A DNA stretch of 60,360 nt from an uncultured Planctomycetales bacterium (GTDB lineage: Bacteria; Planctomycetota; Phycisphaerae; UBA1845; Fen-1342). The notes under the pieces are model-generated. The model was not told where the DNA came from. It worked only from the letters and a program-made list of their open reading frames with translations, and searched no databases. Positions within the stretch are counted from its first letter, which is position 1. Each line of letters starts with the position of its first letter. Positions 30,471 through 54,560 of the stretch are shown in pieces. The stretch lies in assembly GCA_964394415.1 (NCBI GenBank), contig CAYMXT010000002.1, positions 1-60,360 on the forward strand, in the 5' to 3' direction. The position numbers and the translations under genes were made by a program.

Positions 30471-30512
30471 AACGCGAAACGCCGAGGTGTCTCCGCCTAG
30501 GCGTTTCGCGTT
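30471..30512. repeat. perfect 13-bp inverted repeat (stem-loop) at the core/accessory junction
   Basis: AACGCGAAACGCC (30471-30483) and GGCGTTTCGCGTT (30500-30512) are separated by a 16-nt loop. No U/T tract on either side. Confidence 0.6.
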
Positions 30513-30767: not shown

Positions 30768-33700
30768 TCAGAAGAATGCCGTCCACACCACTACGGCAAC
30801 GCCGAAGGCGTGCGCAGCAATTGCCAGAATGTTCTTCGGTTTGCGTACGAAGCTAACGAGTTCGCGCTTGGCGCCATTCCTCGTCGCCCAACTTGCCAAT
30901 AGTTGCCCGGGTATCCCGCCAGCGGCGGCGAGCCGGTTGTTCAGTCGGATTGAGCCTACTCCGCTACGGATGAGAGCGATCTCGTAGTCCAGTAGCTCGT
31001 ACAGAAAACCAAATACCGAAACCGCCACGTAGTACCGCAGGCAAGCTCCCGCGAGACTGGTGATCGCCGGAAGCAGGCTGAGAAATGCGAGCGTCGTCAG
31101 CGTTCCCCACAGGAACCATCGGCGGCGTGCCTCCAGGTGATCGTGCGCGTGCGGCGCGAATACGACGCCGAGCCGGCGGCACAAACCAGTCAGTATTGCC
31201 GCCCCTCCGATGTCCAGCGCGCGAGAGAGCATCGCCGACGGAAGCATCAATCTCCTGGATTGACTGCGTGCGGCTGCTTGCAGCAGTATCGCGACCATCG
31301 CAGAGCCGGAAACCGCAGGTACGAGCAGGACTGCGCTAAACAGAACCGACAGAAACACCAGCTCTCGCGCAACAAAGGTGAAGCCGGCAAATAGCGACCA
31401 GTCCACCAGCTTGGTCGCGAATCGGGCAAACTGCGCTAGCGGCCAAAGCGGCACCCATCCTAGAAGAACAAGCAGCAGCGCGAATCTCGCTTGTGTAAGC
31501 ACCTTGACGATGGGCTCAGCGCACGAGCTCCACGCGCCCGGGAGGACCGCTGGCCGGGGCGCACATTCTGGAATGGTCAGAAGCGGAGACCAAATCCGCT
31601 CCGTTCGAAGCCGGACCTCGAATACGAGTCGCCAAAACGCGGCGAAGCCCACAGTCCACAGTAGCGTCGGCCCCAGCAACGGCACCCGGAACAAGAGCAC
31701 GGACGCCGCAAGAAGTCCCAGCAGCATCACGTCACCACGCCGCAGCTTCCAGATTCGCCTGACCCTGGTGTGCGTTACGGTGGGCGCTGGCTCTTCCCTC
31801 GACACTGCCTGGAGCCGTTCCGTTGCCGTCTTCAGCGCCTCCAGCGCCCGGGTCTCCGTTGGCGAACCGGAAGCGCCCGTCGTAGCCCATTCCGCGGGCA
31901 GATCGGGCGGCGCAGAGAACGCATCGAGCGACACGACACGGATCGGCGGCTCTGGCTGAGTGCGCAGAAGGCTCTCGGCCAGCGGGTCCTGCGTCGAGAC
32001 GCCGAGCCGGCCCAGAATCGCCAAGCGGCCGTTCACCACGTCCTGCGACAGACTCGGATCGAACGAGGATGGGTTCGTCGCCGCCACAGGCGGCAGTTCC
32101 AGCCAGGACGCTTGAAATACTCGAGGGCTTTTCAGGCGGTTGGCAAGCTCGCCCAACGCGCCAAAGAGGGCATCCGTGCTTCGTGCCTCGACGCAAACGA
32201 TTGCCTGACGGGGGGATTGGGTCGCGGCATCCGACGCGGGCGAATTGACCGAGAATCTCACGCGATCGCTCGACAGCGAGGACAGATCGTACTGCGGACC
32301 CGTGTCAAAATCGCAGGCAATGGACAGCCTACCGACGACACCCTCCGGCGCAAGCATCTGGAGGATCCGCTGCCTCAGCGATTCGACATCTTTTCTTGTC
32401 GTTGCAAAGAGCGACACACATCCGCTGCGGTCCTCGATGTCGTGAGATCCGCGGCAATCGCGGCTGAGCGCCTTGAGCCGCGCCTTCTGGTTCTGCCGAA
32501 ACTCGAATGGGGCGGAGCCGACGAGATCCTGAAAGGCATTCGGATCGCCGACGGGGACGACGTGAGCGACGAAGTGTGCATTGACGTCAACGGCTCGGCG
32601 TGTGTAATAGCCTTCAACGGTATCGCCATCTCGAAGACGCCGTCCCCCGGCCCACACGGGCAGGTCGGCTCCAGACACGGTCATTGCGGGAGCGCCTTTG
32701 GGAAAGTGGATTCGCCCCTTTACCACCGCTCCCGGGCGCAGATGCCCGACGTCGGGGGCGTTCGCGGGCACCTGACTCAGGACTAGCTGATCCGGCTTCT
32801 CCGCATCGGTGCCCAACACCTCCAGCGTCAGCCCCGTGTCTCGCTCCACGCGATTGAGATTGGAACGGCGCCGCGCGGGCAGGATCGCGACGCGATACGG
32901 CGGGAACGGCGATTCGCAGAGAACGTTGCCACTGCGGGGGAGCACCCTGATGACGCGCACCGCAACGCGCTGTCCCCGCATCGGCAGCGGCGCACAATCG
33001 AGCTGTTCACCGCGCTGAAGCAGCGCGAGCACGCGCGACTTTGTCGCCGGCTCCAGCGGCAGGTCGCGAATCGCCTCCCGCTGGGACTCGGACAATGCTT
33101 GCAGGAGCCGGAGCCTCGACGTCTCCGCGTCCCACCCGACTCCGTGCGAAGCGAGCGACTCCAGGTCGGCCGCCGAAGGCTCGTGCCGCAGGGTCTCAAA
33201 GGGGAGCGGTGTCCTGCGGCTAATGCGAAGCGCGACTGGCTCGGCGATCTTCAGGAGCGCGGCATCGAATCCGCCCATATTGATCCGCGCCAGCACGATG
33301 CAGCCGGCGCGCGGATCGCTGCCGCTGAGCAACACGGAGCATCCATCGGGACGCGTGCTGACCACGCGCCCCGCGGACGTTGCCGGGCCGTTCCGCAGCG
33401 CTTCGTGGACTACGCGATCCGCCAGGTGCCGAAGCGTGAGTTGGACTCGCGCTCCGGTGGTGTCGATCCTCGCGACGCGCGCGCGCAGGTCGGCGCCGAT
33501 CGGCACGAGCCGACACGCACCGCGCGCCTCGCCGACCGTGACGTCGTTGTCGCCGAGCACAACCCGGAGTCCCGTGCCCCGATGCACGACGTGCAGCTCG
33601 TCGTCTCCCTCGGGCGAGACCTCGTGTGAGGCCACGACGACGGCCACGTCCTCACCGGGGCGGTGCTGGCGCGCGAACGCGGCGAACGCTTCGCGCGAGC

Positions 33701-36700
33701 GGGCACACGTCAGGCGGACGGCGCCGGCGCGGTCATGGGCGAAGACCTCGGCCTGCACCTCGCCGCGAGCGCCCTCCGGCGCATCGACGATGACACCGAT
33801 CGCGACGACGCGTGAAAGCCGGCGCGCCGCGGTACGGCGCGGCCCTTCTGCGTTTGCCTCCGTAAGCTCCTCTGTAGTCTCGGTTTCGAGTTCGGGTTCG
33901 ACGTCCTTAATCGCTGGAAGCTCCGGCGCAAACAAAGGCTCGTCCTCGGGTTCCGCGACCTCGACGTCGTCACCGTCGGCTCGGGACGTGCCGTTTGAGT
34001 CGCGGGCTAACTCGCACATCGACTGCGCGGGCGTCCGCAGCCGAGCGCCAAGCTCTACGTGGCAGGCCCGGTCGCGCGCGTGCGAGATGACGCGGCACCA
34101 CACCACCGCTCCCACGGGATAGCGCGTTCGAGTCGCGATGGCGGCCTCCCGATCGACGAGGGCCCTATCGTCCACCGCGGCGGCGGAAAGCTCGGCGACC
34201 AGGCGTGACAGCTTTGCGCTGCTGAGGTCAGGCAATGCCCTTGCAAGGTTTGTGGGCACGACAACCGCGAAGTTCGTCTCGACCACGCGCAGCGCGGCGC
34301 CGCCACGCGTTCGCTCGCTGACACGGCGTGCGACGCTGACAAAAAGGTCGCACGGCCGCAGCGCGCACACAGACCCGCGCAATCGTCCGACGGTCGGCGC
34401 GCGATCCCGCGGCCGGACCGGAACGAACGGGGCCAGCGGATCGAGGTCCGGCCCGGAGGCGCGCTGGAAGACGTGACCGCGATTCGCCCACGCCGTCAGG
34501 ACGCGGATGCGGTCCACGTACGGCTGGTGAATCCGCCGATCCTCGCCTCCCTTGAGGTTCTTCGAGAGCGGCTTGAGCAGCTCGGTGCGGATCGACGCGA
34601 TCTCCTTGTCAAACGCATCCAGATTGACCCCGACGGAGTCCGCCCAGGCCGGCAATACGGCTCGGACGAACGCGCGGCGGCAGTCGCCGAGCCAGAGTTC
34701 CAGATCACGCATCGCACGCCGAGGGATTGGTACCTTGGTGGTGAGTTCATCCAAGTCCGCCACGCAGCGCGCCTGCCCCGCGGCAGCGCGAACGGCATCG
34801 GCCTGCCCGTCCAGCTTGTCGATGATCGCGTCGGCCATCGGTGGCAGCGCGGCCGCGTCCCAGGTGCGCGACCAGATTGCCTCATCGCCGTCGAACTCGT
34901 CGCGGTCGCCGACCTGCTCGTAGGCCGACCACAAGCCGATCGCGAACGCGACGTCGTCCTCAGCAGTTGCCAAGAGAGCATCGCGCAACGGGGACGAGCG
35001 CGGGTCGGCCGTCTCGGTTTCGGGCTCGAAGACTTTCGAACTTCGAACGTTTCGGGCGAGCCACGCGACGGTTGCCGCCATCTCGATCGCGCAGCAGTGC
35101 CGGTCGGCGAGAGACATGAGCAGCGCCACTTCCTGCGGCGGCAGGTTGCCGATGCTGCTGTAGGATTCGACGAAAGCCGCCTGCGGCGTAGGATCCCCGT
35201 CGTCGTCGATCAACCCCGACTCTTTCAAGCGATGGTGCGCGCGCAGCAGTTCCCGATCCAGTTCTTCGCGCTGGCTGTCGTCGGCCATCCAGGGGAAGTA
35301 GCGCGTCTCAACGCGTTCGACGCCGGCCTGGGCTGCCTTAAGCACTGCGGGCGTCATCTCCTCGAGGAGGATCTTGGGTTCCGAGTACGCCTCGAAGAGA
35401 GTCTCGTGCTGCTGCTCGCTGTAGAGCATCCAGGCGACACCGTTGGAGACACGGCCGACGCGGCCCCAGCGCTGCTTGCAGCCGGCTCGACTGTGGAGCC
35501 GCGGCGGCACTCCCGCCTGTTCTTTGCTTGTGTCCCAAATCTTCTGGCAGATGAGCCCCGTATCGATGGAGTGCTTGAGGTTTGGGAACGTCAAAGAAGT
35601 CTCAGCGTAATTGGTGGCAATGATGACGCGAAGCTTGCCTCCGTTTGAGCGGTTCTCCGTCGCGCCCTTCTGCTCGTTCGCGGGTGTGTCTCTGTGCAGG
35701 CCGATGAGATCGAGACTTGCGCGAAGTTCCGGGTGCTGCGCAAGCAGCTCCTCGATCCGTTCGATGCAGGCGGCGACGGACTTTTTGCTGTGCAGGAAGG
35801 CCAGCACGTCGCCGCGCATCTCAGGTGTCGCGAGATCAAGCGAATCCGTGACGGGGCCCAGCGGTGGAAGCGCGTGCATGCGCAGCACGATGTCGGCGAC
35901 CTTGGCGGCCAAGGGCTCGTGAATCGAATCGGCGAGCCGCTTGACGGCCTGCGGGTCGGTTTGATTCGCCACGTATGGCAGCAGGAATTCGCGTGGGTCC
36001 CGATAGACTTTCTGATACTCGTGTTCCTTGAAGTAGCTGAACTCCTTGATCGCGGTTCGCTGGCCCTGTGGGAGGAAGCGATCGAAGTACGCCCGGAACG
36101 CCTCCGGATCGATCGTGGCGCTGGCGATGAGTATCTTTACGTGTGGATTGCGTGCCAGTGCCCGCACAAGCAGGGCCATGATGAAATCGATATTCAAGCT
36201 GCGTTCGTGCGCCTCGTCGATCACGACGAGTCCCATGCGGTGCAGTAGTTCCTGGGTCAGCCACGAGACGACGGTCCCGTCGGTTACGTAGCGCAGACTG
36301 GTCTCCCAGTCCGAATACGGGTTATCCTTAAAGCGATACCCATAGAACTGCCGCGCACCGACGGCGCACCCCACCAGCTCGCCAGCGACGAAGAACGGCG
36401 TGTCACGCGTTGACTTCACGCGCGGCTGCGTGATAAGGATCTGGCCATCGGGGTTGTACATCGCGCCGGAATCGCCGCCACCAGGCGGGAGCATGATGCG
36501 CATCGGGATGTAGGTTGACTTTCCCGCGCCGGTCTTTGCGATCGCCAGCGCAACGCGGACCGACGGATCGCTCAGCAGTTCGTGGAACTCGAGTAGCTCG
36601 GAGTCCTTGACCGCGAATCTGCCCTCAGGAATCGGACGGCCGCACCGGCGGGACATGTACTCGACCGTCGCATGCGGCAGGAATCCCAGCGCCGAGTGCG

Positions 36701-36899
36701 ACGCGGCCGCTTTGCCGTCGGTGCTCTCGAGCAGCGTGGCCTCGAACGGCAGGTAGCGAAGTGGTCGTCGCGCGGAGGCTTCGCAGCCTGGGCACAGTTC
36801 CGGTAGCCCACGCATTCCCGCGCGCCGAGCGGCGACAACGTGCTGCGAGAACGTCTGGGGCTCCCGGCACCCAGCGCAGTGGAACGTCCACTCAAGCAT
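30768..36899 (-). CDS. giant DEAH/RHA (HrpA-like) helicase with an N-terminal Zn-ribbon, a long beta-rich middle region and a C-terminal multi-TM domain
   Basis: Motifs in order: AKTGAGKST, TQPRV, TDGTVV, DEAHERSLNIDF, SAT, ATNYAETSLTFP, QRWGRVGR. Two CxxC pairs at the N-terminus. The last ~320 aa hold 8-9 hydrophobic helices. ATG 36899 overlaps the upstream stop (ATGCTTGA). Confidence 0.85.
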   Translation of the reverse strand: MLEWTFHCAGCREPQTFSQHVVAARRAGMRGLPELCPGCEASARRPLRYLPFEATLLESTDGKAAASHSALGFLPHATVEYMSRRCGRPIPEGRFAVKDSELLEFHELLSDPSVRVALAIAKTGAGKSTYIPMRIMLPPGGGDSGAMYNPDGQILITQPRVKSTRDTPFFVAGELVGCAVGARQFYGYRFKDNPYSDWETSLRYVTDGTVVSWLTQELLHRMGLVVIDEAHERSLNIDFIMALLVRALARNPHVKILIASATIDPEAFRAYFDRFLPQGQRTAIKEFSYFKEHEYQKVYRDPREFLLPYVANQTDPQAVKRLADSIHEPLAAKVADIVLRMHALPPLGPVTDSLDLATPEMRGDVLAFLHSKKSVAACIERIEELLAQHPELRASLDLIGLHRDTPANEQKGATENRSNGGKLRVIIATNYAETSLTFPNLKHSIDTGLICQKIWDTSKEQAGVPPRLHSRAGCKQRWGRVGRVSNGVAWMLYSEQQHETLFEAYSEPKILLEEMTPAVLKAAQAGVERVETRYFPWMADDSQREELDRELLRAHHRLKESGLIDDDGDPTPQAAFVESYSSIGNLPPQEVALLMSLADRHCCAIEMAATVAWLARNVRSSKVFEPETETADPRSSPLRDALLATAEDDVAFAIGLWSAYEQVGDRDEFDGDEAIWSRTWDAAALPPMADAIIDKLDGQADAVRAAAGQARCVADLDELTTKVPIPRRAMRDLELWLGDCRRAFVRAVLPAWADSVGVNLDAFDKEIASIRTELLKPLSKNLKGGEDRRIHQPYVDRIRVLTAWANRGHVFQRASGPDLDPLAPFVPVRPRDRAPTVGRLRGSVCALRPCDLFVSVARRVSERTRGGAALRVVETNFAVVVPTNLARALPDLSSAKLSRLVAELSAAAVDDRALVDREAAIATRTRYPVGAVVWCRVISHARDRACHVELGARLRTPAQSMCELARDSNGTSRADGDDVEVAEPEDEPLFAPELPAIKDVEPELETETTEELTEANAEGPRRTAARRLSRVVAIGVIVDAPEGARGEVQAEVFAHDRAGAVRLTCARSREAFAAFARQHRPGEDVAVVVASHEVSPEGDDELHVVHRGTGLRVVLGDNDVTVGEARGACRLVPIGADLRARVARIDTTGARVQLTLRHLADRVVHEALRNGPATSAGRVVSTRPDGCSVLLSGSDPRAGCIVLARINMGGFDAALLKIAEPVALRISRRTPLPFETLRHEPSAADLESLASHGVGWDAETSRLRLLQALSESQREAIRDLPLEPATKSRVLALLQRGEQLDCAPLPMRGQRVAVRVIRVLPRSGNVLCESPFPPYRVAILPARRRSNLNRVERDTGLTLEVLGTDAEKPDQLVLSQVPANAPDVGHLRPGAVVKGRIHFPKGAPAMTVSGADLPVWAGGRRLRDGDTVEGYYTRRAVDVNAHFVAHVVPVGDPNAFQDLVGSAPFEFRQNQKARLKALSRDCRGSHDIEDRSGCVSLFATTRKDVESLRQRILQMLAPEGVVGRLSIACDFDTGPQYDLSSLSSDRVRFSVNSPASDAATQSPRQAIVCVEARSTDALFGALGELANRLKSPRVFQASWLELPPVAATNPSSFDPSLSQDVVNGRLAILGRLGVSTQDPLAESLLRTQPEPPIRVVSLDAFSAPPDLPAEWATTGASGSPTETRALEALKTATERLQAVSREEPAPTVTHTRVRRIWKLRRGDVMLLGLLAASVLLFRVPLLGPTLLWTVGFAAFWRLVFEVRLRTERIWSPLLTIPECAPRPAVLPGAWSSCAEPIVKVLTQARFALLLVLLGWVPLWPLAQFARFATKLVDWSLFAGFTFVARELVFLSVLFSAVLLVPAVSGSAMVAILLQAAARSQSRRLMLPSAMLSRALDIGGAAILTGLCRRLGVVFAPHAHDHLEARRRWFLWGTLTTLAFLSLLPAITSLAGACLRYYVAVSVFGFLYELLDYEIALIRSGVGSIRLNNRLAAAGGIPGQLLASWATRNGAKRELVSFVRKPKNILAIAAHAFGVAVVVWTAFF

Positions 36900-38250
36900 G
36901 CTCGTCTCCTGTCGCCGCCGACGCCGGCCAGACCGGTCCATGGGTCGCCGGCCCGTTTTCCTGCTCGTACACCGGGGTAACGCGCAGCCACGGCCCCGGG
37001 TGGTCCGTAAAGCTGATTCGGCGCTCGAACCAGCGCGCCAACCGCGCCAGGTGTGGCCAGCGAACCGAGACCCGCTCCCACCACACGCGCAACAGCGACA
37101 CGGGCCGCTGCGACTCGAGGATTGTGTGGATCGCAGCGCGGTAGAAGCCGACCACAGCGGCTTCGAGTCCAGTGTGGTGCAGATAGACCATGACCCGCCG
37201 ACCGCCGTACGTCACCCGCAACTCGCGCAGCAGCGTCAAGCCACGCTCGAAACAAATGCGGTCCTGTGCATCCATGGGCAGGTTGCCGGTCGCCTCGGCG
37301 TTCGTCAGGTAGGCGCGCTCCACATTGACGTCCATATGAACGTGTCGCATGCTGATCAGCGCCACATGTAGCTCGTGGTCCGCCTTCCACGCGGCCGGTG
37401 CCCGTTCGGCACACCTCAGCGGAAATCCCGGAGCCGGTGCCCCGCAGCCATACACCACCGGCACGTCCACCCGCAGTTCTCCGCGCGGCCGTAGGATTTC
37501 CTCCGCAAGCACGTCCGTGAGCGTCGGATGGTCCTGGCGCAGTGCATCGATCACACCGCCATGCTCGATCGCCGCCCGTACACGCCGCCGGCAGAGCTCC
37601 TTTTTCCGCTGGAAGCCCGCCTCGCGACTCGCCCGGGTGCCGGCGGCGCGCTCGCGCGCCTCGATCTCGAGCATGTGAAGAGCGGTCTCCCACTCGGACT
37701 CGATCGCGACGTGATCGGCCTGGTCGGGCGCAGGGCGCGCCGGTGCGGCCCCGTCACGCTGGTCGGTGAGAGCGGGTAGTTCGAGCAGGCCGCACCCGCT
37801 CGGCTGCGCCACCGACTCGATGAACTGCAACATCGCCTGAATGTCCCGGTCTCCGGTCCGCTCGGCATCGAGCGCGGCCAGCGATAACTCGTCGACCATA
37901 TCTGCCACCTGTCCTGGCTCCGTCAGGCAGCGCCCCAGCCAGCGCGGGCGGTTGGCCGCGTTACGCGCCGCAAGGTGGCCGAGCAGGTCGAGATACCCTC
38001 TACCGATGCAGACCGATTGCCCCAGGCGGGCATCGTATCGGCTCGACGCGGGGACGATGTCATCGAGTCGCTGAAGAAGCCCGTGGATGCGCCGGCGGTC
38101 ATTCAGCGGATTCACGTGTTTGCCGAGATGACGGACGGCGACCCGCAGCTCCGACAGCGTGCGGTGGAGCTCGTCGGAACCGGTCTCAGCCGGTTCAAAC
38201 AGCACCGCCGGCAGCGCGAACAGCCGCAGCTGAGGCGCGCGCGGTTTCAT
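36892..38250 (-). CDS. hypothetical protein, translationally coupled to the helicase gene
   Basis: 452-aa ORF. Its ATG overlaps the upstream stop (ATGA, 38247-38250) and its stop overlaps the helicase ATG. Composition is non-repetitive. No motif recognised. Confidence 0.7.
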   Translation of the reverse strand: MKPRAPQLRLFALPAVLFEPAETGSDELHRTLSELRVAVRHLGKHVNPLNDRRRIHGLLQRLDDIVPASSRYDARLGQSVCIGRGYLDLLGHLAARNAANRPRWLGRCLTEPGQVADMVDELSLAALDAERTGDRDIQAMLQFIESVAQPSGCGLLELPALTDQRDGAAPARPAPDQADHVAIESEWETALHMLEIEARERAAGTRASREAGFQRKKELCRRRVRAAIEHGGVIDALRQDHPTLTDVLAEEILRPRGELRVDVPVVYGCGAPAPGFPLRCAERAPAAWKADHELHVALISMRHVHMDVNVERAYLTNAEATGNLPMDAQDRICFERGLTLLRELRVTYGGRRVMVYLHHTGLEAAVVGFYRAAIHTILESQRPVSLLRVWWERVSVRWPHLARLARWFERRISFTDHPGPWLRVTPVYEQENGPATHGPVWPASAATGDEHA

Positions 38251-39482
38251 GGGCGAACACTCTGCATGCGTGTGAACTTGTCGAGCACGCGACCGCTCAG
38301 TTCGGCCACCGACACGGGGGCGACGATGAGGCCGGCACCAGCGGCTCTCACGTCCGCGAGAACCGCGCTTCGCCGTGCCAGCGGAACTTGCCGAAAGTCA
38401 TTGGTCACCACCACGACGCGTGTCGGCTGCGCAGCGCCCCCGGCGGGGCATTCGTCGAGAAGCGCGCCGGCACCCGCATCCGCGCCGAACTGGGCGGCCG
38501 ATCGCGCGACGAAGGACGTGCGAATCGTGGCACCGGCAGCGAGCATCTCCGATGGTGCGCAGATCGTTTCTTCCGGCCAACGCATGGCGGTCAGCAGGTG
38601 ATACTCGCGCACGAACGGTGGTGCGCTGGTTGTGACGCGGAAGGAGGGTTCATCCGGCGTTCGAAACGCGGAGGCCAGGGCCTCCGGTGTCGTCGGTACG
38701 GCCGGCGCGCGGAGCAGAGCGTCGAACACGCTGGCCAGCGCGATCGGTCGTGCATACTGAACGCGCGTTCGATCGAATAGCGGCGCGGCATCCGGGCAGG
38801 ACGCCAGCAGCCAGGCCGGGGCCGGGCACCAGGAGATCGCCGCATCGAGTTCCGCGGCGCTCCAAACTCCTGCGTGCATCAGGAAAGCGAGCCTTCCGAG
38901 CGAGCAACGACCCCGCAGGATCCCATTCTCGGCGGCCTGACGAAGCGCGGGTGCTGCCTCGGCGAGACGCCACAGCAGTTGCTCGCCCTCGACCGGTCCG
39001 ATCGCGCGGCGACGCAGGTTCGGAAGCTCGACGCCCAACTCACCCGCGAGCGTGACGATCGGCTGCGGAATCTCGTCGTTGAAGCTCGCAGCGATCATGG
39101 TGCATCGCTTGCACGCCTCGGCAAGCGTGAAGGTGAGGACCGCCCGCCACGCGGCTCGCCGCGGCAAGCTCGGTCCGTCGACCGCGTGGAGGGCATCTAC
39201 CTCCAGGCACCCGAGCTCCTTGCGGTTGCGCAAGGCAACGAAACCGATGAGGGCCCCGTCCGAGGTCAGCCGAAACGGTCGCCAGTTGCTATGGCGCGGC
39301 GCCTTGCTGTCTGGATCATCATGTTCAAACCTGAACTGGCTGGGATCAGAGATGCGCCGCTCGATCCGCTTCAGCGCCGAAGCCAGTGCATCCCCGCCAG
39401 CCGTGGTCGAGGACGTGTTGGGTGTCAGGCGCAGCAGGTCTTTCTTCGTGAAGAAGGTCCAGCGACTGATAATGCTTTGCAT
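38247..39482 (-). CDS. hypothetical protein, first gene of the helicase operon
   Basis: ATG 39482 lies ~8 nt after GGAGGG (the ORF extends to GTG 39563, which has no usable spacing). Only a weak GNAT-like stretch: LIGFVALRNRKELGCLEVDALHAV. No firm motif. Confidence 0.65.
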   Translation of the reverse strand: MQSIISRWTFFTKKDLLRLTPNTSSTTAGGDALASALKRIERRISDPSQFRFEHDDPDSKAPRHSNWRPFRLTSDGALIGFVALRNRKELGCLEVDALHAVDGPSLPRRAAWRAVLTFTLAEACKRCTMIAASFNDEIPQPIVTLAGELGVELPNLRRRAIGPVEGEQLLWRLAEAAPALRQAAENGILRGRCSLGRLAFLMHAGVWSAAELDAAISWCPAPAWLLASCPDAAPLFDRTRVQYARPIALASVFDALLRAPAVPTTPEALASAFRTPDEPSFRVTTSAPPFVREYHLLTAMRWPEETICAPSEMLAAGATIRTSFVARSAAQFGADAGAGALLDECPAGGAAQPTRVVVVTNDFRQVPLARRSAVLADVRAAGAGLIVAPVSVAELSGRVLDKFTRMQSVRP

Positions 39483-39719
39483 CTCGCATCCCTCCGCCAC
39501 GTCCGGTGCGGCGACCTTCCCGACCGACGCTGCGGCAGGGTCCGTCAACCGTGATCCGACCACTCCTTAGATACCGCCGCCGCGAACCACCCATCCGGCC
39601 GTTTCGGACGATCGGGCCGATTCCAGTGCTCGCGCCGGCAGCGCGCAAGTCAGCAGAAGCTCATCCATTGGGCCCCTATTCTCGCCCGGTTGCTCCGCAT
39701 CGGTCAAGCCATCTGTCGA

Positions 39720-40124
39720 TCAACGAGGCGCCGGGCGGGCGGGACCGACGCGCCGCACCACCTCGCACTGCGCGGCTACACTCAGGCGCTCGAACGGGAC
39801 GTGCCAGCAGCGAACGCCGCACAACGACACCAGCACGAACGGTTCGCCGTGAGGCATGGCCTGCCAACTGACGGAGACTTCGAGGTCGGAACGCTCTAAC
39901 GCCATGCTGACCAGGTCGTGCTTATGCGAAAAAAGCCGGCGGCGCTGAGCCGGGTCGGTCTCGGCGTGAGCCGCCGCGTTGATCGCCAACAGCGCCCGGA
40001 TAAGCAGCTCCGCGATGCCCGCGCCAAGTCCCGCAGCCGGGTCAGCCGGTCGGCGGCGCCTACGCGCGTCTCTCGCGTGGTGGGCGCCGCTTCGGCGATC
40101 ACGTTGCTTGGAGGTGATCAACAT
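39720..40124 (-). CDS. hypothetical small protein (134 aa)
   Basis: Its ATG shares a base with the upstream stop (TGATG at 40122-40126). Arg-rich N-terminus, then a helical segment and a beta-like segment: LEVSVSWQAMPHGEPFVLVSLCGVRCWHVPFERL. Confidence 0.5.
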   Translation of the reverse strand: MLITSKQRDRRSGAHHARDARRRRRPADPAAGLGAGIAELLIRALLAINAAAHAETDPAQRRRLFSHKHDLVSMALERSDLEVSVSWQAMPHGEPFVLVSLCGVRCWHVPFERLSVAAQCEVVRRVGPARPAPR

Positions 40125-40477
40125 CAGTTGAAATCCCCTGGACGGAGTGCGAAGTACTCCGCCTCGGCGAGCGCTACGGCCGTGCGCCTAAGGGCCAGCG
40201 GCTCGCGCGGATCTGTCCAGCGCACCTGGCGAACGCGGCCGAGGCGGGAATCGAAGGCGGACACCGCTCTGGGAATCGGCGGGTGGGCGCTGGGATCGGC
40301 CAGGACACCATCGAGGTGCCGGAGCAGCCGGCGCTCGTGCGGGTCGAATCCTCCGGCGGTGGCGGTGCGCCTTGGCCCGAAAGGTCCGGCCGGCGGCCGC
40401 GAGCGATGTGCCACCGTTCTTGTGCGCGCACGTGTCCTAGATTGAACTCGGGCCGGCGCGTTACTCTGGAGGGTCAT
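40124..40477 (-). CDS. hypothetical small protein (117 aa)
   Basis: ATG 40477 lies 7 nt after AAGGAG (the ORF extends to 40519). Basic, disordered-looking N-terminus. No motif recognised. Confidence 0.5.
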   Translation of the reverse strand: MTLQSNAPARVQSRTRARTRTVAHRSRPPAGPFGPRRTATAGGFDPHERRLLRHLDGVLADPSAHPPIPRAVSAFDSRLGRVRQVRWTDPREPLALRRTAVALAEAEYFALRPGDFN

Positions 40478-40660
40478 CGAAGGCTCCTTGCTCTGCATGT
40501 GCATACCGGGGTGGCCCACCCGATTTCCGGCCTGCTGTCAGCGTGTCCTCGGAGCTGAAATGAAAAGGGCCTCAGCCGGCGCTTCGGCACTTGGCTGTGT
40601 GTTTTCGCCCGGAACGCGAGCCGGTAGAATTGATGGGCCTACTGAACAAGCGAGCGGCTG

Positions 40661-41032
40661 ATGACGAGACTGGGTGACATTCTCTCGACCGCCTTGGCAA
40701 ACAGTGCGCAGGTGGGCCAGGTCCACTGGGTTTCGAACTGCTTCTGGCCCGACCTCTTCGAGCGGGCGAAGTCACGGTCACATCCCGGCTTGGTTTGCAG
40801 CGCAAGATCGGAAGTGGCCCCGGGTACGAGCAAGCAGTGCTCGAATCGACCGAGGAAGTGGCGAGAGTTCACGTTGCAGCACTCGCTCGACGGGGTGCGC
40901 GGTACGACGTTCTTCCTCGGCCTTCGCAGGTACGTCGCGGCGTCGGAGCTCGGAAGGATCATGGGTTGGCTGCACGCCCACGATCGCGCGCGACTGGACC
41001 AAATCCTGAGTTCGGAGCGTTCGAATTCGTGA
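40661..41032 (+). CDS. hypothetical protein, weakly PemK/MazF-like
   Basis: GQVHWVSN...KSRSHPGLVCS and the C-terminal LGRIMGWLHAHDRARLDQIL follow the MazF/PemK barrel-plus-helix pattern when compared by eye with the bona fide MazF at 53945-54277. First gene of the plus-strand operon. Confidence 0.5.
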   Translation: MTRLGDILSTALANSAQVGQVHWVSNCFWPDLFERAKSRSHPGLVCSARSEVAPGTSKQCSNRPRKWREFTLQHSLDGVRGTTFFLGLRRYVAASELGRIMGWLHAHDRARLDQILSSERSNS

Positions 41033-41976
41033 TTGCGTCTGTGGACGAAATCGCGGCGTGTGTGTCACGGCTTTCGAGCTCGTCGGTCTTCCACGAGTCA
41101 GATTGGCCCACGCTTTTCGCGCTCGTGCGGCAAACGGTCGCGAGTCTGCCTGCCGCTCTTTACGGACCCGACTCCCAGATCACGAGGCACTGCTCGTGGA
41201 CCGGCAACGATGTGACCATCGCTACCCAGGACTGGATCATGGAGTTCCTGGGTTGTCAGGCAGTCGATGAGAGATTCTCACCCAGCGCCATCGTCCGCCT
41301 AGCTCGGTTTTCGATCCGCTGGTTTGTGATCGACTCCTATGGCCGTCCGACTCCGCGGAGAGATTGCTACGGAGCTCTGACGGAGGCGCTCCGGGACTTT
41401 CCCGGTCTTATCGGCGGCCACCGCGAAGTCAGCTTCGAGCCGCAGGCACCGTTCCCATTCGATCCGGACGGCAACCGTTCGGCCAGAAGCCGTTGGGTCA
41501 CGACGGCGGAAGTACGGCGCGCCCTGGCCATGATCGCCGAGCAACAACCGACCGGCTGGACGAAGGGCCAGCTTGCGGACGTGCTCTGTCGGTGGGCCGG
41601 TGTTCCTGGCGATCCGATCTCGCTGGCATCGAGCGCGGTCCCTCTCCCGTCTCATTGCCCTGCTGACGAGCTGGATTCCACCGAAGCCGCTCGCGCGCAC
41701 GCGAACGCCGTGGGCGCGCAACTGGACGAAGCGGAGCGCGAGATTCTGCCATATCTGATCCCTGTCCAGGACGGAAAGATGACGTTGGCCGATGCCTCGA
41801 AGAAATGGAAGATCCCGGTTTCGACCTTGCACGATCGGGCGCAACGGCTTCGAGGTAAGATTCGTGCCCTCTCTGCGGGAACTAAAATCGGGGGGCCCGC
41901 GGCCGCCAGAGCGTTTCTGGAAGCGCTTTTGGAGCATAGCGCCGGAATCTTGCCCTCCGAAGAGGATATGAAGTAG
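41029..41976 (+). CDS. hypothetical protein with a C-terminal sigma-70 region 4 / LuxR-like HTH
   Basis: GTG 41029 overlaps the upstream stop (GTGA). C-terminus: LDEAEREILPYLIPVQDGKMTLADASKKWKIPVSTLHDRAQRLRGKIRAL. Confidence 0.6.
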   Translation: MIASVDEIAACVSRLSSSSVFHESDWPTLFALVRQTVASLPAALYGPDSQITRHCSWTGNDVTIATQDWIMEFLGCQAVDERFSPSAIVRLARFSIRWFVIDSYGRPTPRRDCYGALTEALRDFPGLIGGHREVSFEPQAPFPFDPDGNRSARSRWVTTAEVRRALAMIAEQQPTGWTKGQLADVLCRWAGVPGDPISLASSAVPLPSHCPADELDSTEAARAHANAVGAQLDEAEREILPYLIPVQDGKMTLADASKKWKIPVSTLHDRAQRLRGKIRALSAGTKIGGPAAARAFLEALLEHSAGILPSEEDMK

Positions 41977-41993
41977 AAAGCGGAGTGTGCGCA

Positions 41994-44525
41994 ATGGAAC
42001 CCATCCCGCCCTGCCCGGAGTCGCTCTTGGGGCTGCGCAGGCCGCTCGCGACGCGACTCCCGACCGTCAATCTGGGCGTGCGGCCGGGCACGATCTGGGA
42101 GGCGCGCGCGCCGGACGGCGGATTGTTTGAGTTCCTGCTGCCCGCTTGCCCAGAGAACGAAGATGAAAACCCGAGGGATTTCGTTCGAGCGATTCCGCTC
42201 ACGGGCGCGCTCCGGCTGATGGACCGCGGGGACGCAGCGATCTCGAACGAGGCCGCACAACGACCGTGCGTTGCTCATAGCTGGCTTGAGGGGCCGATCC
42301 TCGTTTCGGCGCTCGAGCGCTGTATTGGCCACATTTCAGAGACGAGTGCCGGCGAAGTGGCGCGGGCGCGGGAGGTTTCCGACATTGAGGCAAGCGATGG
42401 GGCCGTGGCCGAGTTCCGGCGGGCGCTCGCCGAGCAGATCGATCCCTACTATGACGCTTGTTGGGGCGAGATCCTCGGCGATGCGGGCAGGACCGGGCAG
42501 CCGGAGGAGGCAGCGCGCGTCATAACGCTGGAGCGGCTCAGGCGGGAACTGCCGCGAACCGGGATCCGCCTCGCGGCCGCACCGGCGACGGAGGATACCG
42601 CCCCCTCGCAGGAGGAGCTGTTGCACTGGATGCGCTGGATCAGCTTCGCCGGAACCGCCCGAGCCGCGACCGACCTGCTCGCACAGCTTCCGCAGGACGT
42701 CCCGGTTGCGGAGCGTCAACTACTCGAACGCGCTGCGCAGGGAAACCCGCCGATGCGTCGGGTGCACGTTTGCTGGCTGCTGCTGGTGCTTCGCGGCGCG
42801 GACGCGGAGATTCTCCGGCCGGCGGTCGCGGTGGCCGCGCGTCTACAGCCGTTCGCGCCGCACGAGCCAACGCCGAGCATCGGAGGGCTGAGCGCGGACG
42901 AGCGCTTTCGTGCTGCGGTCCAGGAGGCCCTTCAACTCGGCGGCGAACTCGACCTGGACGGCAAGCGGCGGTGGGCGCTCGACGGGCTGGGCGTAGTACC
43001 GCAAGGAGGTTCCATCGCGACGCTCGAAGGAGGGTCCGCTGGTCTGGCAGTATACGCCAACCTCTGCTGGGCGCGCCGTGGTGTTCGGCCGGAAGCGCAG
43101 GTTGCGCTCACCGGCGTCCTTGAGGGCGGACGGTTTCTGGCCGTAAACGACATACACCGAAAGCTCGATGCGGCGCGCCGGGCCGGGGTCGAATGGGTAG
43201 TGGCCGTCGACCAGCGCGCCGCCGTAGCAAGCAACGAGCGCGATCGGCTCATTCTCCTGCCCGACCGGCTGCCCGCTATGGACGCGCTCGGGCTTGTTGA
43301 GGCGGAGCTCGCGCGCGCCGGCGTGCGGATGGTTCCCGACGCCGAGCGCTGGGATGAGTGGATTGGCTACGCGCGCAAGGTGGCGAGTCAGCACGGCGAT
43401 TTGCCGGGCAGTCGAATCCTGCCGCTAGCGCGGCTCTGGAAGAGCACCCCGGCCGGCCCGAACGAGATCGAACATCGGAAACGGGATACGACCATCGCAA
43501 TCCTCAAGGCTCGTGCAGTCTACGCACAGGGTTTCACGCTCAAGGCGCTTGGAGATTTCGACGTCGCGCGAGCACGTCTCGCCGACAGTTGGGGGCTCAT
43601 CGATCCGGAGTTGCGGTGGATGTTCTTCGCCTCGTACTTCCACTGCACCGGCCAATGGGGAGACACGCTGCCGGCGGAACTTCAGGCCATCGCCGATCGA
43701 ATGGTGCAGGAGGACGAAGACATCGACGATGAGTCGGCGGTCCATCGGTATGGCGGATATGCCGACTGGTCGCGGTACTCCGCGGCACAGTGTGAAAACC
43801 CAGACGAACGCGCGGCGCGCTTCCGCCGAATCGAGGAGATTTACCTGACGCGCGTGCGTCCGCGGCAGGAACGGCTTGATCAGATCAAGGGCAGGTCCGG
43901 CGGGCTGAATCGGACGGACACGCAACTCGCGTCGCTGTATCTGGTGTGGGGCAGACTCGACCAGGCTGAGCAGCGGCTAGCGCCGCTGCTCGACTTGGAG
44001 CGAACGCTGGCCGCGCGACAGCTCGAGCGGCCGGACACATGGAGATTCGCGGCGGGGCATGCGCATGTCTGGCTTTCGCTGCGGAAGTTATCCGGCCTGC
44101 CGATCGACGAGGGCTGGCTCGATTGGCGGCAGCAGACGCGGGCCGTGCTGGAGGCGGCCGCAAGCCCGCGCAGCTACCACGCGTTATTCGCAGCGATCGA
44201 GCGATCGGCGCTGATCCTGGACCCGGGAGACTCGATTGCCCGCGCGGAGCGCGCTATGGCGCAGCTCGCCGATGCGTCAAAGGAAAATCCGGGGCGCGCG
44301 CAACTGGCCGCTTGGAGTTATGCGGTAGCAGCGACGGCGCACTTCCGAATTCAAGGACTGGACTGGCGTCCGTGGGCGGACCGCGTGGAGGAACATGTCG
44401 CCCAATTGGCACCCTGGTATCGACAGATGGATCGTGTCCGCCGACTGAGCAGCGAATTGACGGACGACCCACCGCCGTCGACCCAGTCAGTCTTCTCAAA
44501 GGCAATGACGTTTACGCTCTTTTGA
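41994..44525 (+). CDS. Lon (S16) protease-domain protein with an unknown N-terminal region and a C-terminal helical/TPR-like repeat region
   Basis: EGGSAGLAVYANL...VALTGVLEGGRFLAVNDIHRKLDAARRAGVEWVV aligns by eye to the E. coli Lon segment DGPSAGIAM...[31 protein letters not shown]. The Ser codon is 43035-43037 and the Lys codon 43161-43163. ATG 41994 follows GAAAGCGGAG. Confidence 0.75.
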   Translation: MEPIPPCPESLLGLRRPLATRLPTVNLGVRPGTIWEARAPDGGLFEFLLPACPENEDENPRDFVRAIPLTGALRLMDRGDAAISNEAAQRPCVAHSWLEGPILVSALERCIGHISETSAGEVARAREVSDIEASDGAVAEFRRALAEQIDPYYDACWGEILGDAGRTGQPEEAARVITLERLRRELPRTGIRLAAAPATEDTAPSQEELLHWMRWISFAGTARAATDLLAQLPQDVPVAERQLLERAAQGNPPMRRVHVCWLLLVLRGADAEILRPAVAVAARLQPFAPHEPTPSIGGLSADERFRAAVQEALQLGGELDLDGKRRWALDGLGVVPQGGSIATLEGGSAGLAVYANLCWARRGVRPEAQVALTGVLEGGRFLAVNDIHRKLDAARRAGVEWVVAVDQRAAVASNERDRLILLPDRLPAMDALGLVEAELARAGVRMVPDAERWDEWIGYARKVASQHGDLPGSRILPLARLWKSTPAGPNEIEHRKRDTTIAILKARAVYAQGFTLKALGDFDVARARLADSWGLIDPELRWMFFASYFHCTGQWGDTLPAELQAIADRMVQEDEDIDDESAVHRYGGYADWSRYSAAQCENPDERAARFRRIEEIYLTRVRPRQERLDQIKGRSGGLNRTDTQLASLYLVWGRLDQAEQRLAPLLDLERTLAARQLERPDTWRFAAGHAHVWLSLRKLSGLPIDEGWLDWRQQTRAVLEAAASPRSYHALFAAIERSALILDPGDSIARAERAMAQLADASKENPGRAQLAAWSYAVAATAHFRIQGLDWRPWADRVEEHVAQLAPWYRQMDRVRRLSSELTDDPPPSTQSVFSKAMTFTLF

Positions 44526-45001
44526 GCACCCACGGAGTCTCGCGCATTCTCATACAGGTCGATGCCTGCTTCATAGAAGACGGCCGGTACGTGTGGTCGC
44601 CGGAGCAGCGCGACCGCGCATGGGCCGACTGCTTCGCACGCCTTGAAGCCGCACTAGAGTCCGGCCGCTACTCGCTGGCGGCGCTAACGGTCGGAGTCCC
44701 CGCGTCCGGCAAGTCGACGTACGCCGCCGCGAACAACCACGAAGACATCGTGATCTTCGATGCTGTCTTCTCGACGCGACAGTTTCGCGAACGCGCTATC
44801 AATATCGCGCGGCGATTCGCTGTCCCGATCGAGGCTTGGTGGATGGATACGCCGCTAGAGGAGTGCCTGCGGCGCAACAAGCAGCGAGATGTCGATCGAC
44901 GCATACCAGAGGATGCGCTGCGACAATTCCACAACAACTTGTCGCGCGAACCCCCTAACGAGGCCGAGGGGTTCGTTCTGGTGCGCAAAGTGCAGCAGTA
45001 G
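44522..45001 (+). CDS. small P-loop kinase (AAA_33 / polynucleotide-kinase / zeta-like)
   Basis: Walker A is GVPASGKST. DAVF acts as a Walker B-like segment, and a lid-like RRNKQRDVDRRIPEDAL follows. A TTG start at 44522 overlaps the upstream stop (TTGA); the start is uncertain. Confidence 0.6.
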   Translation: MSTHGVSRILIQVDACFIEDGRYVWSPEQRDRAWADCFARLEAALESGRYSLAALTVGVPASGKSTYAAANNHEDIVIFDAVFSTRQFRERAINIARRFAVPIEAWWMDTPLEECLRRNKQRDVDRRIPEDALRQFHNNLSREPPNEAEGFVLVRKVQQ

Positions 45002-46023: not shown

Positions 46024-46443
46024 TCAGTCGCCGACCTGGTACTTGGCGCCGCGAACACTGAAAGCCCAGCGCGTTCCTTCCAGCACATCAGTGACAAACT
46101 GCGTCATGGCCGGATTCTCCAAGGCACCGCTGACGTAGGCGATTGCGTTGCCGTCGGTCTTGTCCATGCTGGCGTGAATGACCTGATCTGCATCGCACAC
46201 GACGGCCAGATTCGGGTTGTGGGTGACGATGAACACTTGCCGGCGGCGGCGGGCCTCTTTGATGCACTCCACGAGTACCTTCGCGACCGTGTGGTTGTCG
46301 AGGTTTCCCTCGGGCTGGTCGATGACGAGGGGCATGACCGACTCAGCGCGACGGAGCTTGTGAACGAGCGCGAGCTGCGCAGCCGGGGCGAGGCGCTGGC
46401 GCGCAGCGAGGCTTTGAGAGAACCGGCACAGCCTCTGCATGAA
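46024..46443 (-). pseudogene. C-terminal fragment of an SMC/ABC-type (AAA_15/23-like) ATPase
   Basis: Only the Walker B/D-loop/H-loop end is present: PLVIDQPEGNLDNHTV...RRQVFIVTHNPNLAVVCDADQVIH. There is no Walker A or N-terminal body upstream. The fragment ends where the plus-strand gene at 46457 begins. Confidence 0.6.
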
Positions 46444-46456
46444 CGGGTGGTTGAAT

Positions 46457-46879
46457 ATGAGCGCTAACGCTAACTCGATTCTGCAACGGTATGGTCTGCG
46501 GGACAACGACACGGTTGCCAACGGTGCGGGAAGGAGTGAAGCCGACGTTACGGAAGATCTCGGCGCCTTCGGCTGGCTGCGCGGCATTCGCGACCGGGCG
46601 ACGAGTCTGGAGCTTCGCAGGAAGGACGGCCACATCCTGGCTGTCGGCTACGGCTACATGGACAAGGCGGAGTTCGACCCGTCGGAGGGGATTACGCTCT
46701 CCGTCGCCGGGCAGAAGATCCGCATCAAGGGCCGCAATCTCAACGCCGAAGTCCGGCCGACGGTGCGGCTCTTCGAGGGCATCGCTCGTAACCGCGTGCC
46801 GTGGATTCAGGAGGCGGACCGGGCCGCCGGTATACAAGCCGGCGACCGGGAGACGGTCGTTGATGCCATCGAATGGTGA
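46457..46879 (+). CDS. hypothetical protein (looks mobile-element associated)
   Basis: ATG 46457 follows GGTGG. Non-repetitive sequence: DLGAFGWLRGIRDRATSLELRRKDGHILAVGYGYM...RLFEGIARNRVPWIQEAD. Family not identified. Confidence 0.5.
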   Translation: MSANANSILQRYGLRDNDTVANGAGRSEADVTEDLGAFGWLRGIRDRATSLELRRKDGHILAVGYGYMDKAEFDPSEGITLSVAGQKIRIKGRNLNAEVRPTVRLFEGIARNRVPWIQEADRAAGIQAGDRETVVDAIEW

Positions 46880-47710: not shown

Positions 47711-48739
47711 ATGAGTCGTAGCCGCACTGGGTTCACGCTGCTCGAACTGAGCATCGTGCTTGTCATCATCGCCGTCGTCATGGCCGGCGGGGCGATCACC
47801 TTTTCCAGCATGTTTCAGCAGCGCCAGTTCGATGAAACCAATGCCAAGCTGGCCATCCTGCAGAAAGCCCTGCTCGACTATCGCCGCACCTTCAAGCGCC
47901 TGCCGTGCCCGGCGGAAATCGACGACTACAACATGGACGAGCGCTATTTCGGCATTGAAGCGCAGAATGCAACCGGCTGCAACGGCACACCGGCGGCCAC
48001 CTTCACCTATAACATCACCACCGGCACGTCCACAGCCTGCACCGCGGCGCAGCACTGCATCTATGGCGGCATGATACCGACCCGCACGCTCAAGCTTGCC
48101 GACGAAATGGCCATTGACGGCTGGGGCCGGCGCATCTTCTACGCAGTGGACAGCGATTTCGCCAAAACCGATGCCTTCACCACCCAGATGGACATCACGG
48201 CGGATGCAACAAGCGGGACGACCCGCATCGTTGTGAAGAGCATCAGCGGCGACGATAAGACCATATCCGCCGCCTATGCGCTGGTGAGCTTCGGCCCGGA
48301 CGGACACGGCGCCTACCCGCGCTACGTCAGTGAGGTGTCGCTCACTACGGCGTCCCGCATTAATCAGGTGGGGACTTACCAGATAGCCAGCAACGAAACG
48401 CCCATATACCACTTTCCCGGCGCGACCGCTTCGGACTGGAACGTCAGCGCCGTAAGTGTGCCGATGTACGTGATGGCGGCCGGCGGTGATCCGGGGATTG
48501 GCGTGGGAGGCGGCGGTTCGGAAACCTCAACTACCATCACCTTCACGGCGCGCCTCAGCTCCGGTTCGGGTAGCGTGTATACGCTTGAGAACTGCGATTG
48601 CGCCTCAACCGGGCAGAATGCGACGTTCGATAACGTGTTCTACCAGGCCCGGCTTATCCGCAACGATGACCCTGCCGACACGTTCGACGACCTGCTCGCA
48701 TTCGCAACGCGGGGATCGCTCCGGTCCGCAACCGAGTAG
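47711..48739 (+). CDS. prepilin-type N-terminal cleavage/methylation domain protein (pilin/pseudopilin-like)
   Basis: MSRSRTG|FTLLELSIVLVIIAVVMAGG is a class III signal. GGAGGGG sits upstream of the ATG. Confidence 0.8.
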   Translation: MSRSRTGFTLLELSIVLVIIAVVMAGGAITFSSMFQQRQFDETNAKLAILQKALLDYRRTFKRLPCPAEIDDYNMDERYFGIEAQNATGCNGTPAATFTYNITTGTSTACTAAQHCIYGGMIPTRTLKLADEMAIDGWGRRIFYAVDSDFAKTDAFTTQMDITADATSGTTRIVVKSISGDDKTISAAYALVSFGPDGHGAYPRYVSEVSLTTASRINQVGTYQIASNETPIYHFPGATASDWNVSAVSVPMYVMAAGGDPGIGVGGGGSETSTTITFTARLSSGSGSVYTLENCDCASTGQNATFDNVFYQARLIRNDDPADTFDDLLAFATRGSLRSATE

Positions 48740-48742
48740 CCC

Positions 48743-54525: not shown

Positions 54526-54540
54526 GTACCCTACCAGTAT

Positions 54541-54560
54541 TGTTATATCTATATATAACA
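54541..54560 (-). promoter_or_regulatory. AT-rich palindrome upstream of mazE (candidate promoter/operator)
   Basis: TGTTATAT-ctat-ATATAACA lies 16-35 nt upstream of the mazE ATG, in an otherwise GC-rich context. Confidence 0.45.

Follow-up and report, generated by a model that had tools for sequence, protein, structure and literature searches.

To our knowledge, HrpA and HrpB account for almost everything that is known of bacterial DEAH/RHA helicases. A minus-strand gene on contig CAYMXT010000002.1 (assembly GCA_964394415.1), from an uncultured Planctomycetales bacterium, encodes a giant helicase of this type that stands in a cassette with two further genes, here called geneA and geneB. The DNA analysed is a stretch of 60,360 nucleotides (positions 1 to 60,360 of the forward strand) and is referred to below as the window. 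The cassette and the geneA and geneB families appear undescribed in the sources searched (Pfam 2025, NCBIfam 2026, PADLOC 2023, PDB and the literature), and the cassette is probably a new gene system. An initial annotation of the window, made from the letters alone, had described the helicase as a single uninterrupted 6.1-kb open reading frame (ORF). The ORF list and translation agree, with a minus-strand frame that is open from 36941 to 30768 (2057 codons). Residue numbers for motifs and domains follow this 2057-codon ORF.

Cassette architecture and distribution

The cassette has the order geneA-geneB-helicase on one strand and the helicase is always the third gene. In the window the genes overlap stop to start, by 4 nt between geneA and geneB and by 8 nt between geneB and the helicase (ATGCTTGAG), and the three are translationally coupled. 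The features of the window cassette are as follows.

38247..39563, minus strand: geneA, first cassette gene, ORF of 438 residues (ORF and translation), likely start at M28 near 39482
36892..38250, minus strand: geneB, second cassette gene, 452 residues, its start overlapping the geneA stop
36762..36899, minus strand: helicase start and N-terminal C4 zinc ribbon (CxxC...CxxC, ribbon residues 15-60), from the start and overlap and the family N-termini
35262..36584, minus strand: DEAH/RHA helicase core, from motif positions and Pfam, NCBIfam and PDB matches
34026..35264, minus strand: putative winged-helix/HA2-like helices and then an OB-like beta module, residues ~560-972, conserved in the family, from the HrpB profile, AlphaFold2 (AF2) and Foldseek
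33774..34025, minus strand: acidic linker, residues 973-1056, 26% Asp plus Glu, predicted to be disordered (AF2 predicted local distance difference test, pLDDT, below 40)
32976..33773, minus strand: predicted tandem S1/OB-fold array, residues ~1057-1322, from AF2 and Foldseek and from Pfam S1/KH matches in homologues
31740..32975, minus strand: lineage-specific soluble region, residues ~1323-1734, with mixed beta and alpha/beta elements and low AF2 confidence
30768..31739, minus strand: orphan polytopic membrane domain, residues 1735-2057, and the stop codon, from hydropathy and frame tests

The conserved motifs of geneB were used as a probe for the cassette. The probe found 28 loci in 185,579 species-representative genomes, including Streptomyces, Nocardia, Micromonospora, Mycolicibacterium, Lentzea and Amycolatopsis as well as members of the Chloroflexota, Planctomycetota, Gemmatimonadota, Acidobacteriota, Proteobacteria and Eiseniibacteriota. 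When assemblies and plasmids are counted with the species-representative genomes, the trio is present in about 30 loci from at least six phyla. Metagenomes add 79 contigs with geneB, and the helicase follows geneB on the same strand in every metagenome locus that has both ends on the contig (61 of 61). All-against-all clustering of the genome loci leaves geneA, geneB and the helicase as the only genes common to 26-27 loci, with a geneA homologue directly upstream of geneB in 26 of the 27 clustered. The first three contigs of relatives that were opened have the same arrangement, the helicase being preceded by two same-strand genes of ~350-490 residues that have no Pfam match and are homologous to geneA and geneB of the window. 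The invariant residues of both families are present in the window copies, and the window locus falls within the cassette definition. There is no universal fourth gene among the cassette loci, only neighbours specific to subclades.

The initial annotation had mentioned two upstream genes with the helicase and marked out 30768-40519 for expression. The functional unit is the conserved three-gene cassette, and the 131- and 134-residue ORFs at 39720-40519 are outside it and recur nowhere. These two minus-strand ORFs overlap each other, are rich in Arg, Pro and Ala, and have no family matches and no homologues in related loci; neither matches PADLOC-DB v2.0.0 at E <= 0.1. Instead of a toxin-antitoxin pair they could be spurious ORFs of high-GC sequence.

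In a search of 5.8 billion proteins the helicase family comprises proteins of 1,400-3,000 residues with 26-37% identity to the window protein. Of the 76 closest relatives, about half have Pfam S1 and/or KH domains on record, and S1_RRP5 is also matched by homologues. The relatives that bear a name in their source have an unspecific one ('S1 RNA-binding domain-containing', 'KH domain-containing' or 'HrpA-like RNA helicase/predicted RNA-binding protein with RPS1 domain'). The helicase of plasmid locus L034 is annotated as 'S1 RNA-binding domain-containing protein'. The variable part of the family is the C-terminus, and homology to the window helicase stops near residue 1400. The possibility that the long helicase variants are fusions of geneA or geneB to the helicase was rejected, and variants of 2,075 and 3,048 residues retain separate geneA and geneB genes alongside.

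The 3,048-residue variant is in a locus (L035, GCA_036704275.1 contig, 1-25147) where genes for two Ser/Thr protein kinases precede the cassette and one for a PP2C phosphatase follows it. A related protein of 3,022 residues carries the JGI label 'HrpA-like RNA helicase/serine/threonine protein kinase'. Together these hint at phospho-regulation in the L035 subclade.

Zinc ribbon and helicase motor

The helicase starts at ATG 36899 (M15 of the 2057-codon ORF), giving a protein of 2,043 residues and a gene at 30768..36899 on the minus strand. This ATG is taken as the real start because an AGGAG ribosome-binding site lies 7 nt upstream, the start overlaps the geneB stop codon, and family members align to the helicase from residue 3 of the 2043-residue form.

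The two N-terminal CxxC pairs that the initial annotation had pointed out are present as HCAGC (21-25) and CPGC (50-53). The four cysteines are kept in most family N-termini, where the consensus is EW..CKDCG..F.YSD...SRPERCP.CRK, and on these alignments the C4 zinc ribbon is a signature of the family.

The complete series of DEAH/RHA motifs, which had been placed in order within residues ~130-690, is intact between residues 135 and 497. It consists of motif I (AKTGAGKST, 135-143), Ia (TQPRV, 171-175), Ib (TDGTVV, 220-225), II (DEAHERSLNIDF, 242-253), III (SAT, 274-276), V (ATNYAETSLTFP, 442-453) and VI (QRWGRVGR, 490-497). RecA1 covers ~120-300 and RecA2 ~370-560, with an insertion of ~70 residues between them at ~300-370. 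The only Pfam matches of the helicase are DEAD and Helicase_C; HA2, OB_NTP_bind and DUF3418 give no match. The best PDB relatives of the core are HrpA, Prp43/DHX15, DHX8, DHX36 and DHX37 (E = 1e-38 to 1e-17). From its motifs and these matches, the window protein is a genuine giant DEAH/RHA-type helicase. In NCBIfam both RecA domains align to HrpA (TIGR01967) with 155.4 bits against a cut-off of 722.75, and to HrpB (TIGR01970) with 130.9 bits against a cut-off of 546.15. Scores this far under the curated cut-offs rule out HrpA or HrpB equivalog identity.

Predicted S1 array in the middle region

Residues 640-1730 were modelled by AF2 with a 20-sequence family alignment and the model was compared with the PDB by Foldseek. 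The model is confident over 649-970, where a helical block (pLDDT 75-92 over 649-790) is followed by a beta module. The alignment to the HrpB profile reaches position 445 of 813, which corresponds to the winged helix and the beginning of the ratchet, and Foldseek gives weak matches to DHX37 and Prp43 (E = 0.03-0.24). The HA2-like helical part that had been noticed after the motor may correspond to winged-helix/HA2-like helices within residues ~560-972.

After the acidic linker, residues 1059-1320 form a row of small beta-barrels with pLDDT mostly 70-92. The top Foldseek match is ribosomal protein bS1 (9gut_B, E = 1.9e-9, 501 aligned columns), with further multi-domain bS1 matches to 7a05 (E = 6e-7), 9tvu, 9gux and 8wi7, one of them at E = 2.7e-5; single S1 domains and eIF2-alpha rank after the bS1 structures. 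Pfam S1 is not detected in the sequence of the window helicase itself. The S1 assignment is carried by the predicted fold and by homologues that match Pfam S1 directly, and residues ~1057-1322 are predicted to be a tandem S1 RNA-binding array resembling bS1.

The beta-rich middle of the initial annotation is OB/S1-rich according to AF2 and Foldseek. Of the four S1/OB-like strings that it had picked out, the first two coincide with modelled beta elements, residues 941-965 being in a beta-hairpin of the OB-like module and residues 1147-1170 inside the confident S1 array, and the last two (1321-1343 and 1401-1424) are in low-confidence parts of the model. The soluble region that follows the array (~1323-1734) has no tblastn match in ~110 cassette loci and no PDB match.

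Partner proteins

Neither geneA nor geneB matches anything in Pfam, NCBIfam, PADLOC or the PDB, either singly or as homologue profiles. The Pfam, NCBIfam and PADLOC scans were extended over 20-26 homologues, and the profiles found nothing under E = 0.09 among PDB sequences. A protein homologue search with geneB, and again with its 26-sequence alignment, returned only 4 proteins. The two families are also unrelated to each other by hhalign (alignments A3 and A4).

The geneA family has few invariant polar residues. In three loci (L007, L021 and L022) a SUKH/SMI1-KNR4 domain is fused to the N-terminus of geneA at residues ~30-170 (E = 1e-9 to 1e-13). The window geneA is without this domain, which was gained in at least three lineages. 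SUKH is a protein-binding module typical of toxin-immunity and other conflict systems.

The protein encoded by geneB has a helical, poorly conserved N-terminal half and a well conserved C-terminal alpha/beta domain of ~190 residues, with the consensus VVYxDGSE...PFPLR...LRVALMSMRHxEMD...W[FL]RN...ETD...LYQTGLEPAVVGFYRA. Nine residues are invariant in 26 sequences (S300, R302, H303, D307, N317, G361, A365, F369 and Y370), which suggests an active or ligand-binding site. The window geneB also has an insertion of ~36 residues (QRPVSLLRVWWERVSVRWPHLARLARWFERRISFTD, residues 381-416, 37003-37110) just before the last conserved strand that is in no homologue. The insertion partly resembles the strand after it (SLLRVWW compared with PWLRVTPVY) and may be a partial duplication.

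Mobility of the cassette

The genes flanking the cassettes are not conserved between loci, and many of them belong to integrative or conjugative elements. An integrase and/or HTH_17 (excisionase-type) gene adjoins the cassette in L001, L003 and L036, IS21 adjoins it in L005, and the cassettes of L032 and L034 are on plasmids. On the one plasmid recovered with the geneB probe, the conjugative plasmid pB of Paenarthrobacter ureafaciens, the trio adjoins MobC and the relaxase. The patchy, non-syntenic occurrence and the copies on plasmids and integrative elements mean that the cassette is accessory and horizontally mobile. A syntenic core housekeeping gene is refuted by the unconserved flanks and the mobile-element settings.

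Proposed function

The reading that we favour, with moderate confidence, is that the window ORF encodes the subunit that supplies both motor and RNA binding to a mobile three-gene cassette (geneA, geneB and a helicase with zinc ribbon, DEAH core and S1 array), which would be RNA-directed and, in this organism, held at the membrane. By analogy with other DEAH/RHA enzymes and with S1 domains, the S1 array would capture single-stranded RNA and the helicase would load there. ATP-driven 3'-to-5' translocation, as in DEAH/RHA enzymes, would then unwind or strip RNA or ribonucleoproteins. The coupling of the genes suggests that the helicase works in a complex with the products of geneA and geneB. The former is probably a non-enzymatic adaptor or sensor, at times fused to SUKH, and the latter is a possible enzyme in view of its invariant Ser, Arg, His, Asp and Asn residues. 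The hydropathy of the C-terminal transmembrane (TM) domain suggests that it would tether the complex to the cytoplasmic membrane in the window organism. The structural part of this reading and the assignment to the cassette can be held with high confidence.

A defence or abortive-infection role is plausible, and the SUKH domains on some geneA proteins are a hint of a conflict system. The likeliest role is an RNA-directed conflict function, possibly abortive, by which phages or other mobile elements would be countered. It is tentative, and we give it somewhat less than an even chance. A bolder version is doubtful. In this version the trio would be an unrecognised and widely spread RNA-sensing immune system on integrative and conjugative elements and plasmids, in which the helicase scans for and captures foreign RNA, geneB provides an effector enzyme of new fold, geneA acts as sensor or adaptor, and the lineage-specific C-termini (here a de novo domain with 8-9 TM helices) supply a further output, for example abortive infection coupled to the membrane.

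Several observations weigh against these readings. The helicase, geneA and geneB have no PADLOC-DB v2.0.0 match at E <= 0.1, and no characterised member of the cassette was found in the literature searched. Only ~3-4 of the 135 proteins flanking 26 cassettes are recognisably defence proteins, a raw count with no background control, and these include a C5-methylase, a CARF-HEPN protein and Csm3; some of the flanks are housekeeping genes. RNA, rather than DNA, is proposed as the substrate from domain content alone. The AF2 model of geneB, built on a 4-sequence alignment, has a pLDDT of 38.7 and is unusable. The TM domain is an orphan found in this one protein, and its codon bias is weaker. The initial annotation knew of no described defence or transport family with such a fusion, and no PADLOC model matches the helicase. 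Its abortive-infection proposal fits the mobile accessory context and is still a hypothesis, with no defence-island enrichment found among the 135 proteins.

Some of the same observations would suit a module of RNA metabolism that is not aimed at parasites. This would be a membrane-tethered machine for RNA remodelling, decay or ribosome rescue, carried for expression of the element or adaptation of the host, and comparable to HrpA acting on stalled ribosomes or to the membrane-bound degradosomes of RNase E and RNase Y. The nearest characterised relatives of the helicase are the RNA helicases HrpA, Prp43 and DHX, the predicted array resembles bS1, several cassette copies adjoin ordinary metabolic or chaperone genes, there is no match to a defence model, and the cassette is absent from the 50,697 phage records and the IMG/VR viral contigs searched. 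However, the extremely patchy distribution (28 of 185,579 species representatives), the non-syntenic flanks with locations on plasmids and integrative elements, and the SUKH fusions on some geneA proteins speak against it, and two fast-evolving partners without a known fold are atypical for housekeeping RNA metabolism. We regard this alternative as improbable.

Membrane tail

The last ~735 residues of the window helicase are specific to its lineage, and 8-9 hydrophobic helices form their end. By Kyte-Doolittle hydropathy there are six hydrophobic blocks in residues 1735-2057, three of which are 40-42 residues long and would bring the number of helices to ~8-9, and the loops are rich in Lys and Arg; on hydropathy this is a polytopic membrane protein. 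The initial annotation had counted 8-9 hydrophobic helices in the last ~320 residues, which corresponds to the six blocks with three of double length. It had also treated the TM fusion as a trait that might be conserved. This is not the case, as an exhaustive HMMER search of 1.84 billion cluster representatives with the last 357 residues returned only the self-match and the TM domain has no tblastn match in the ~110 cassette loci. Since the domain is a singleton, the coupling of motor to membrane effector cannot be how the family works in general.

Other family members have TM tails of their own. A single strongly hydrophobic C-terminal helix is present in P0025, P0074, P0075/L004 and L077. 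The helicase of a Dehalococcoidia metagenome-assembled genome (MAG) (L030, 10237-15420) has three to four C-terminal TM helices that are unrelated to the TM domain of the window. Judging by these sequences, membrane attachment is a property acquired several times independently, by unrelated sequences. Recurrent unrelated TM tails argue that the fusion is tolerated and perhaps useful, and they favour an anchor over a universal effector. The L030 protein ends in a duplicated module in which a Trp-rich amphipathic segment and a TM helix occur twice. A fused downstream gene was considered as the origin of the window TM domain and rejected, because only L008 has a same-strand 8-TM neighbour and this is unrelated in sequence. 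The neighbour in question, in a Chloroflexaceae MAG (L008, 16248-17387), is a 380-residue protein without a PDB relative, and its gene follows that of the helicase after 60 nt.

The TM domain could alternatively be an abortive-infection effector, with the helicase sensing foreign nucleic acid and the attached domain opening or disrupting the membrane. Effectors built from TM helices on sensor domains are known from CBASS, Pycsar and accessory proteins of type III CRISPR, the helicase family diversifies at its variable C-terminus, TM tails arose several times in the family, and the context is accessory and mobile. Against this, more than 90% of the family have no TM segment and carry S1/KH RNA-binding modules in its place, so a membrane effector cannot be what the conserved mechanism depends on. 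Where the tail is a single anchor it looks like a localisation signal, and the TM domain resembles no known effector or other protein. The effector is unlikely. We consider an anchor for localisation the likelier role of the TM domain, ahead of a universal effector, because most family members are without a TM segment.

The tail might also be foreign to the gene, as an assembly chimera or as the product of a recent frameshift or stop loss, in which case the functional helicase would end at ~1400-1730. The absence of homologues of the last 357 residues would fit this, as would the window helicase being the sole member of its protein cluster, on a single contig (P0001). The GC content at third codon positions drops from ~0.80 to 0.65-0.73 in the tail, and the codon-usage score there is low (0.02-0.15). 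However, codon-position GC holds the phase of the ORF to the stop codon, with position 2 remaining GC-poor in phase across the TM region. A codon-usage likelihood trained on the confident genes of the window ranks the ORF frame best of six in every 100-codon block over 1501-2000. The coding signals thus favour the ORF frame through the TM region, more weakly than upstream. The chance probability of 320 stop-free codons at the GC content of the tail is ~1e-4, the regular hydrophobic blocks of 20-40 residues with Lys/Arg-rich loops resemble a real membrane protein, and the junction has neither a strong internal ribosome-binding site nor a repeat or palindrome to mark a join. The preceding ~400 residues are equally lineage-specific and TM tails are tolerated in relatives. 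With the frame tests, the long open frame, the protein-like hydropathy pattern and the missing join signature all against it, an artefactual tail is very unlikely, and a native tail is the preferred reading.

Surroundings of the cassette in the window

The window at 1-29 kb carries genes for respiratory and metabolic proteins, among them a molybdopterin oxidoreductase, an EB_dh/cytochrome c protein, NnrS, hemerythrins and radical SAM enzymes. GC content falls from ~0.66 to ~0.61 toward the accessory flank at 40-60 kb. That flank also has orphan ORFs. Domain scans of the flank and a scan of the gap upstream of geneA gave the following features.

39678..39707, minus strand: TTGACC-18-GAGAAT, a promoter-like site in the gap of 155 nt that precedes geneA (1 site compared with 0.9 expected by chance)
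44039-45001: AAA_33 kinase-like C-terminus
46024-46635: C-terminal fragment of an AAA_21/AbiEii-type ATPase
47711-50508: two N-methyl (pilin-like) proteins
54274-54969: MazE-like domain
58421-59953: ORF resembling a type IV secretion system coupling protein (T4CP-like), which also matches PADLOC mad8

The AAA_21 fragment, the MazE-like ORF and the T4CP-like gene, together with the non-syntenic homologues, bear out the placement of the helicase in accessory DNA. A nearby integrase had been proposed as well, but there is none among the window ORFs scanned, though integrases adjoin homologous cassettes. The promoter-like site is a possible cassette promoter, suggestive by its position alone.

Divergent to the cassette are an orphan of 393 residues (40795-41976, plus strand) and a protein of 846 residues (41985-44525, plus strand) with a weak Lon_C match at 347-407. 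The pair has no PADLOC match and does not recur in other cassette loci, and may be a separate two-gene module. At E <= 0.001 there is no PADLOC match for the 393-, 846- and 431-residue neighbouring ORFs. About 260 nt downstream of the helicase stop is a near-perfect 17-bp hairpin with an 8-nt loop (30471-30512, AACGCGAAACGCCGAGG / CCTAGGCGTTTCGCGTT), which sits within a doubtful ORF of 165 residues and could be an operon terminator or regulatory site. Scans for tRNA, Rfam families, repeats and terminators around the locus returned nothing informative.

Significance and comparison with known systems

The analysis defines a separate family of helicases of 1,400-3,000 residues, rare and spread across phyla, with a zinc ribbon in each and S1/KH domains in most. 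The family is strictly tied to two undescribed partners and travels on plasmids and integrative elements. It is a concrete candidate for a new RNA-directed system, and the geneA and geneB families merit structural study. The window copy is a natural experiment in domain accretion, in which an orphan polytopic domain has been joined to a cytoplasmic RNA motor. Should the fusion be real, it would be informative about the origin of new membrane domains and about the spatial control of RNA remodelling.

Like HrpA/HrpB, Prp43/DHX15, DHX36 and DHX37, the window helicase has a superfamily 2 (SF2) DEAH/RHA core with motifs I-VI in order. A possible winged-helix/HA2-like region after RecA2 would be a further likeness, and by analogy the protein would be expected to translocate 3' to 5' on single-stranded RNA. 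Compared with HrpA/HrpB it adds the C4 zinc ribbon, the S1 array, the lineage-specific tail and the TM helices. The cassette helicase is also always encoded after two partner genes and is rare and mobile, not core.

The predicted tandem S1 OB-folds at ~1057-1322 are the point of likeness to bS1 and to other multi-S1 proteins (PNPase, RNase E/R, Tex and Rrp5). In contrast to those proteins, the array of the window is attached to a helicase and stands in neither a ribosomal nor a nuclease context, and its sequence has diverged too far for Pfam S1 to recognise it.

Hachiman HamB, Mokosh MkoA, Druantia DruE, DISARM DrmA and Zorya ZorD resemble the cassette in combining a large superfamily 1 (SF1) or SF2 helicase with small partners in a mobile or accessory setting of patchy distribution. 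The cassette differs from these defence systems in having no PADLOC match, in belonging to a DEAH/RHA subfamily with S1/KH domains, and in having no recognisable nuclease, phospholipase D (PLD) or methylase partner.

The linkage of a cytoplasmic nucleic-acid or nucleotide module to TM helices is found in the TM effectors of CBASS and Pycsar, in Cam1/Csx23 of type III CRISPR, and in the membrane-tethered RNA machines RNase E and RNase Y. Those systems have 1-4 TM helices that belong to recognisable families and are usually N-terminal, whereas the window helicase has 8-9 at its C-terminus, with no homologue.

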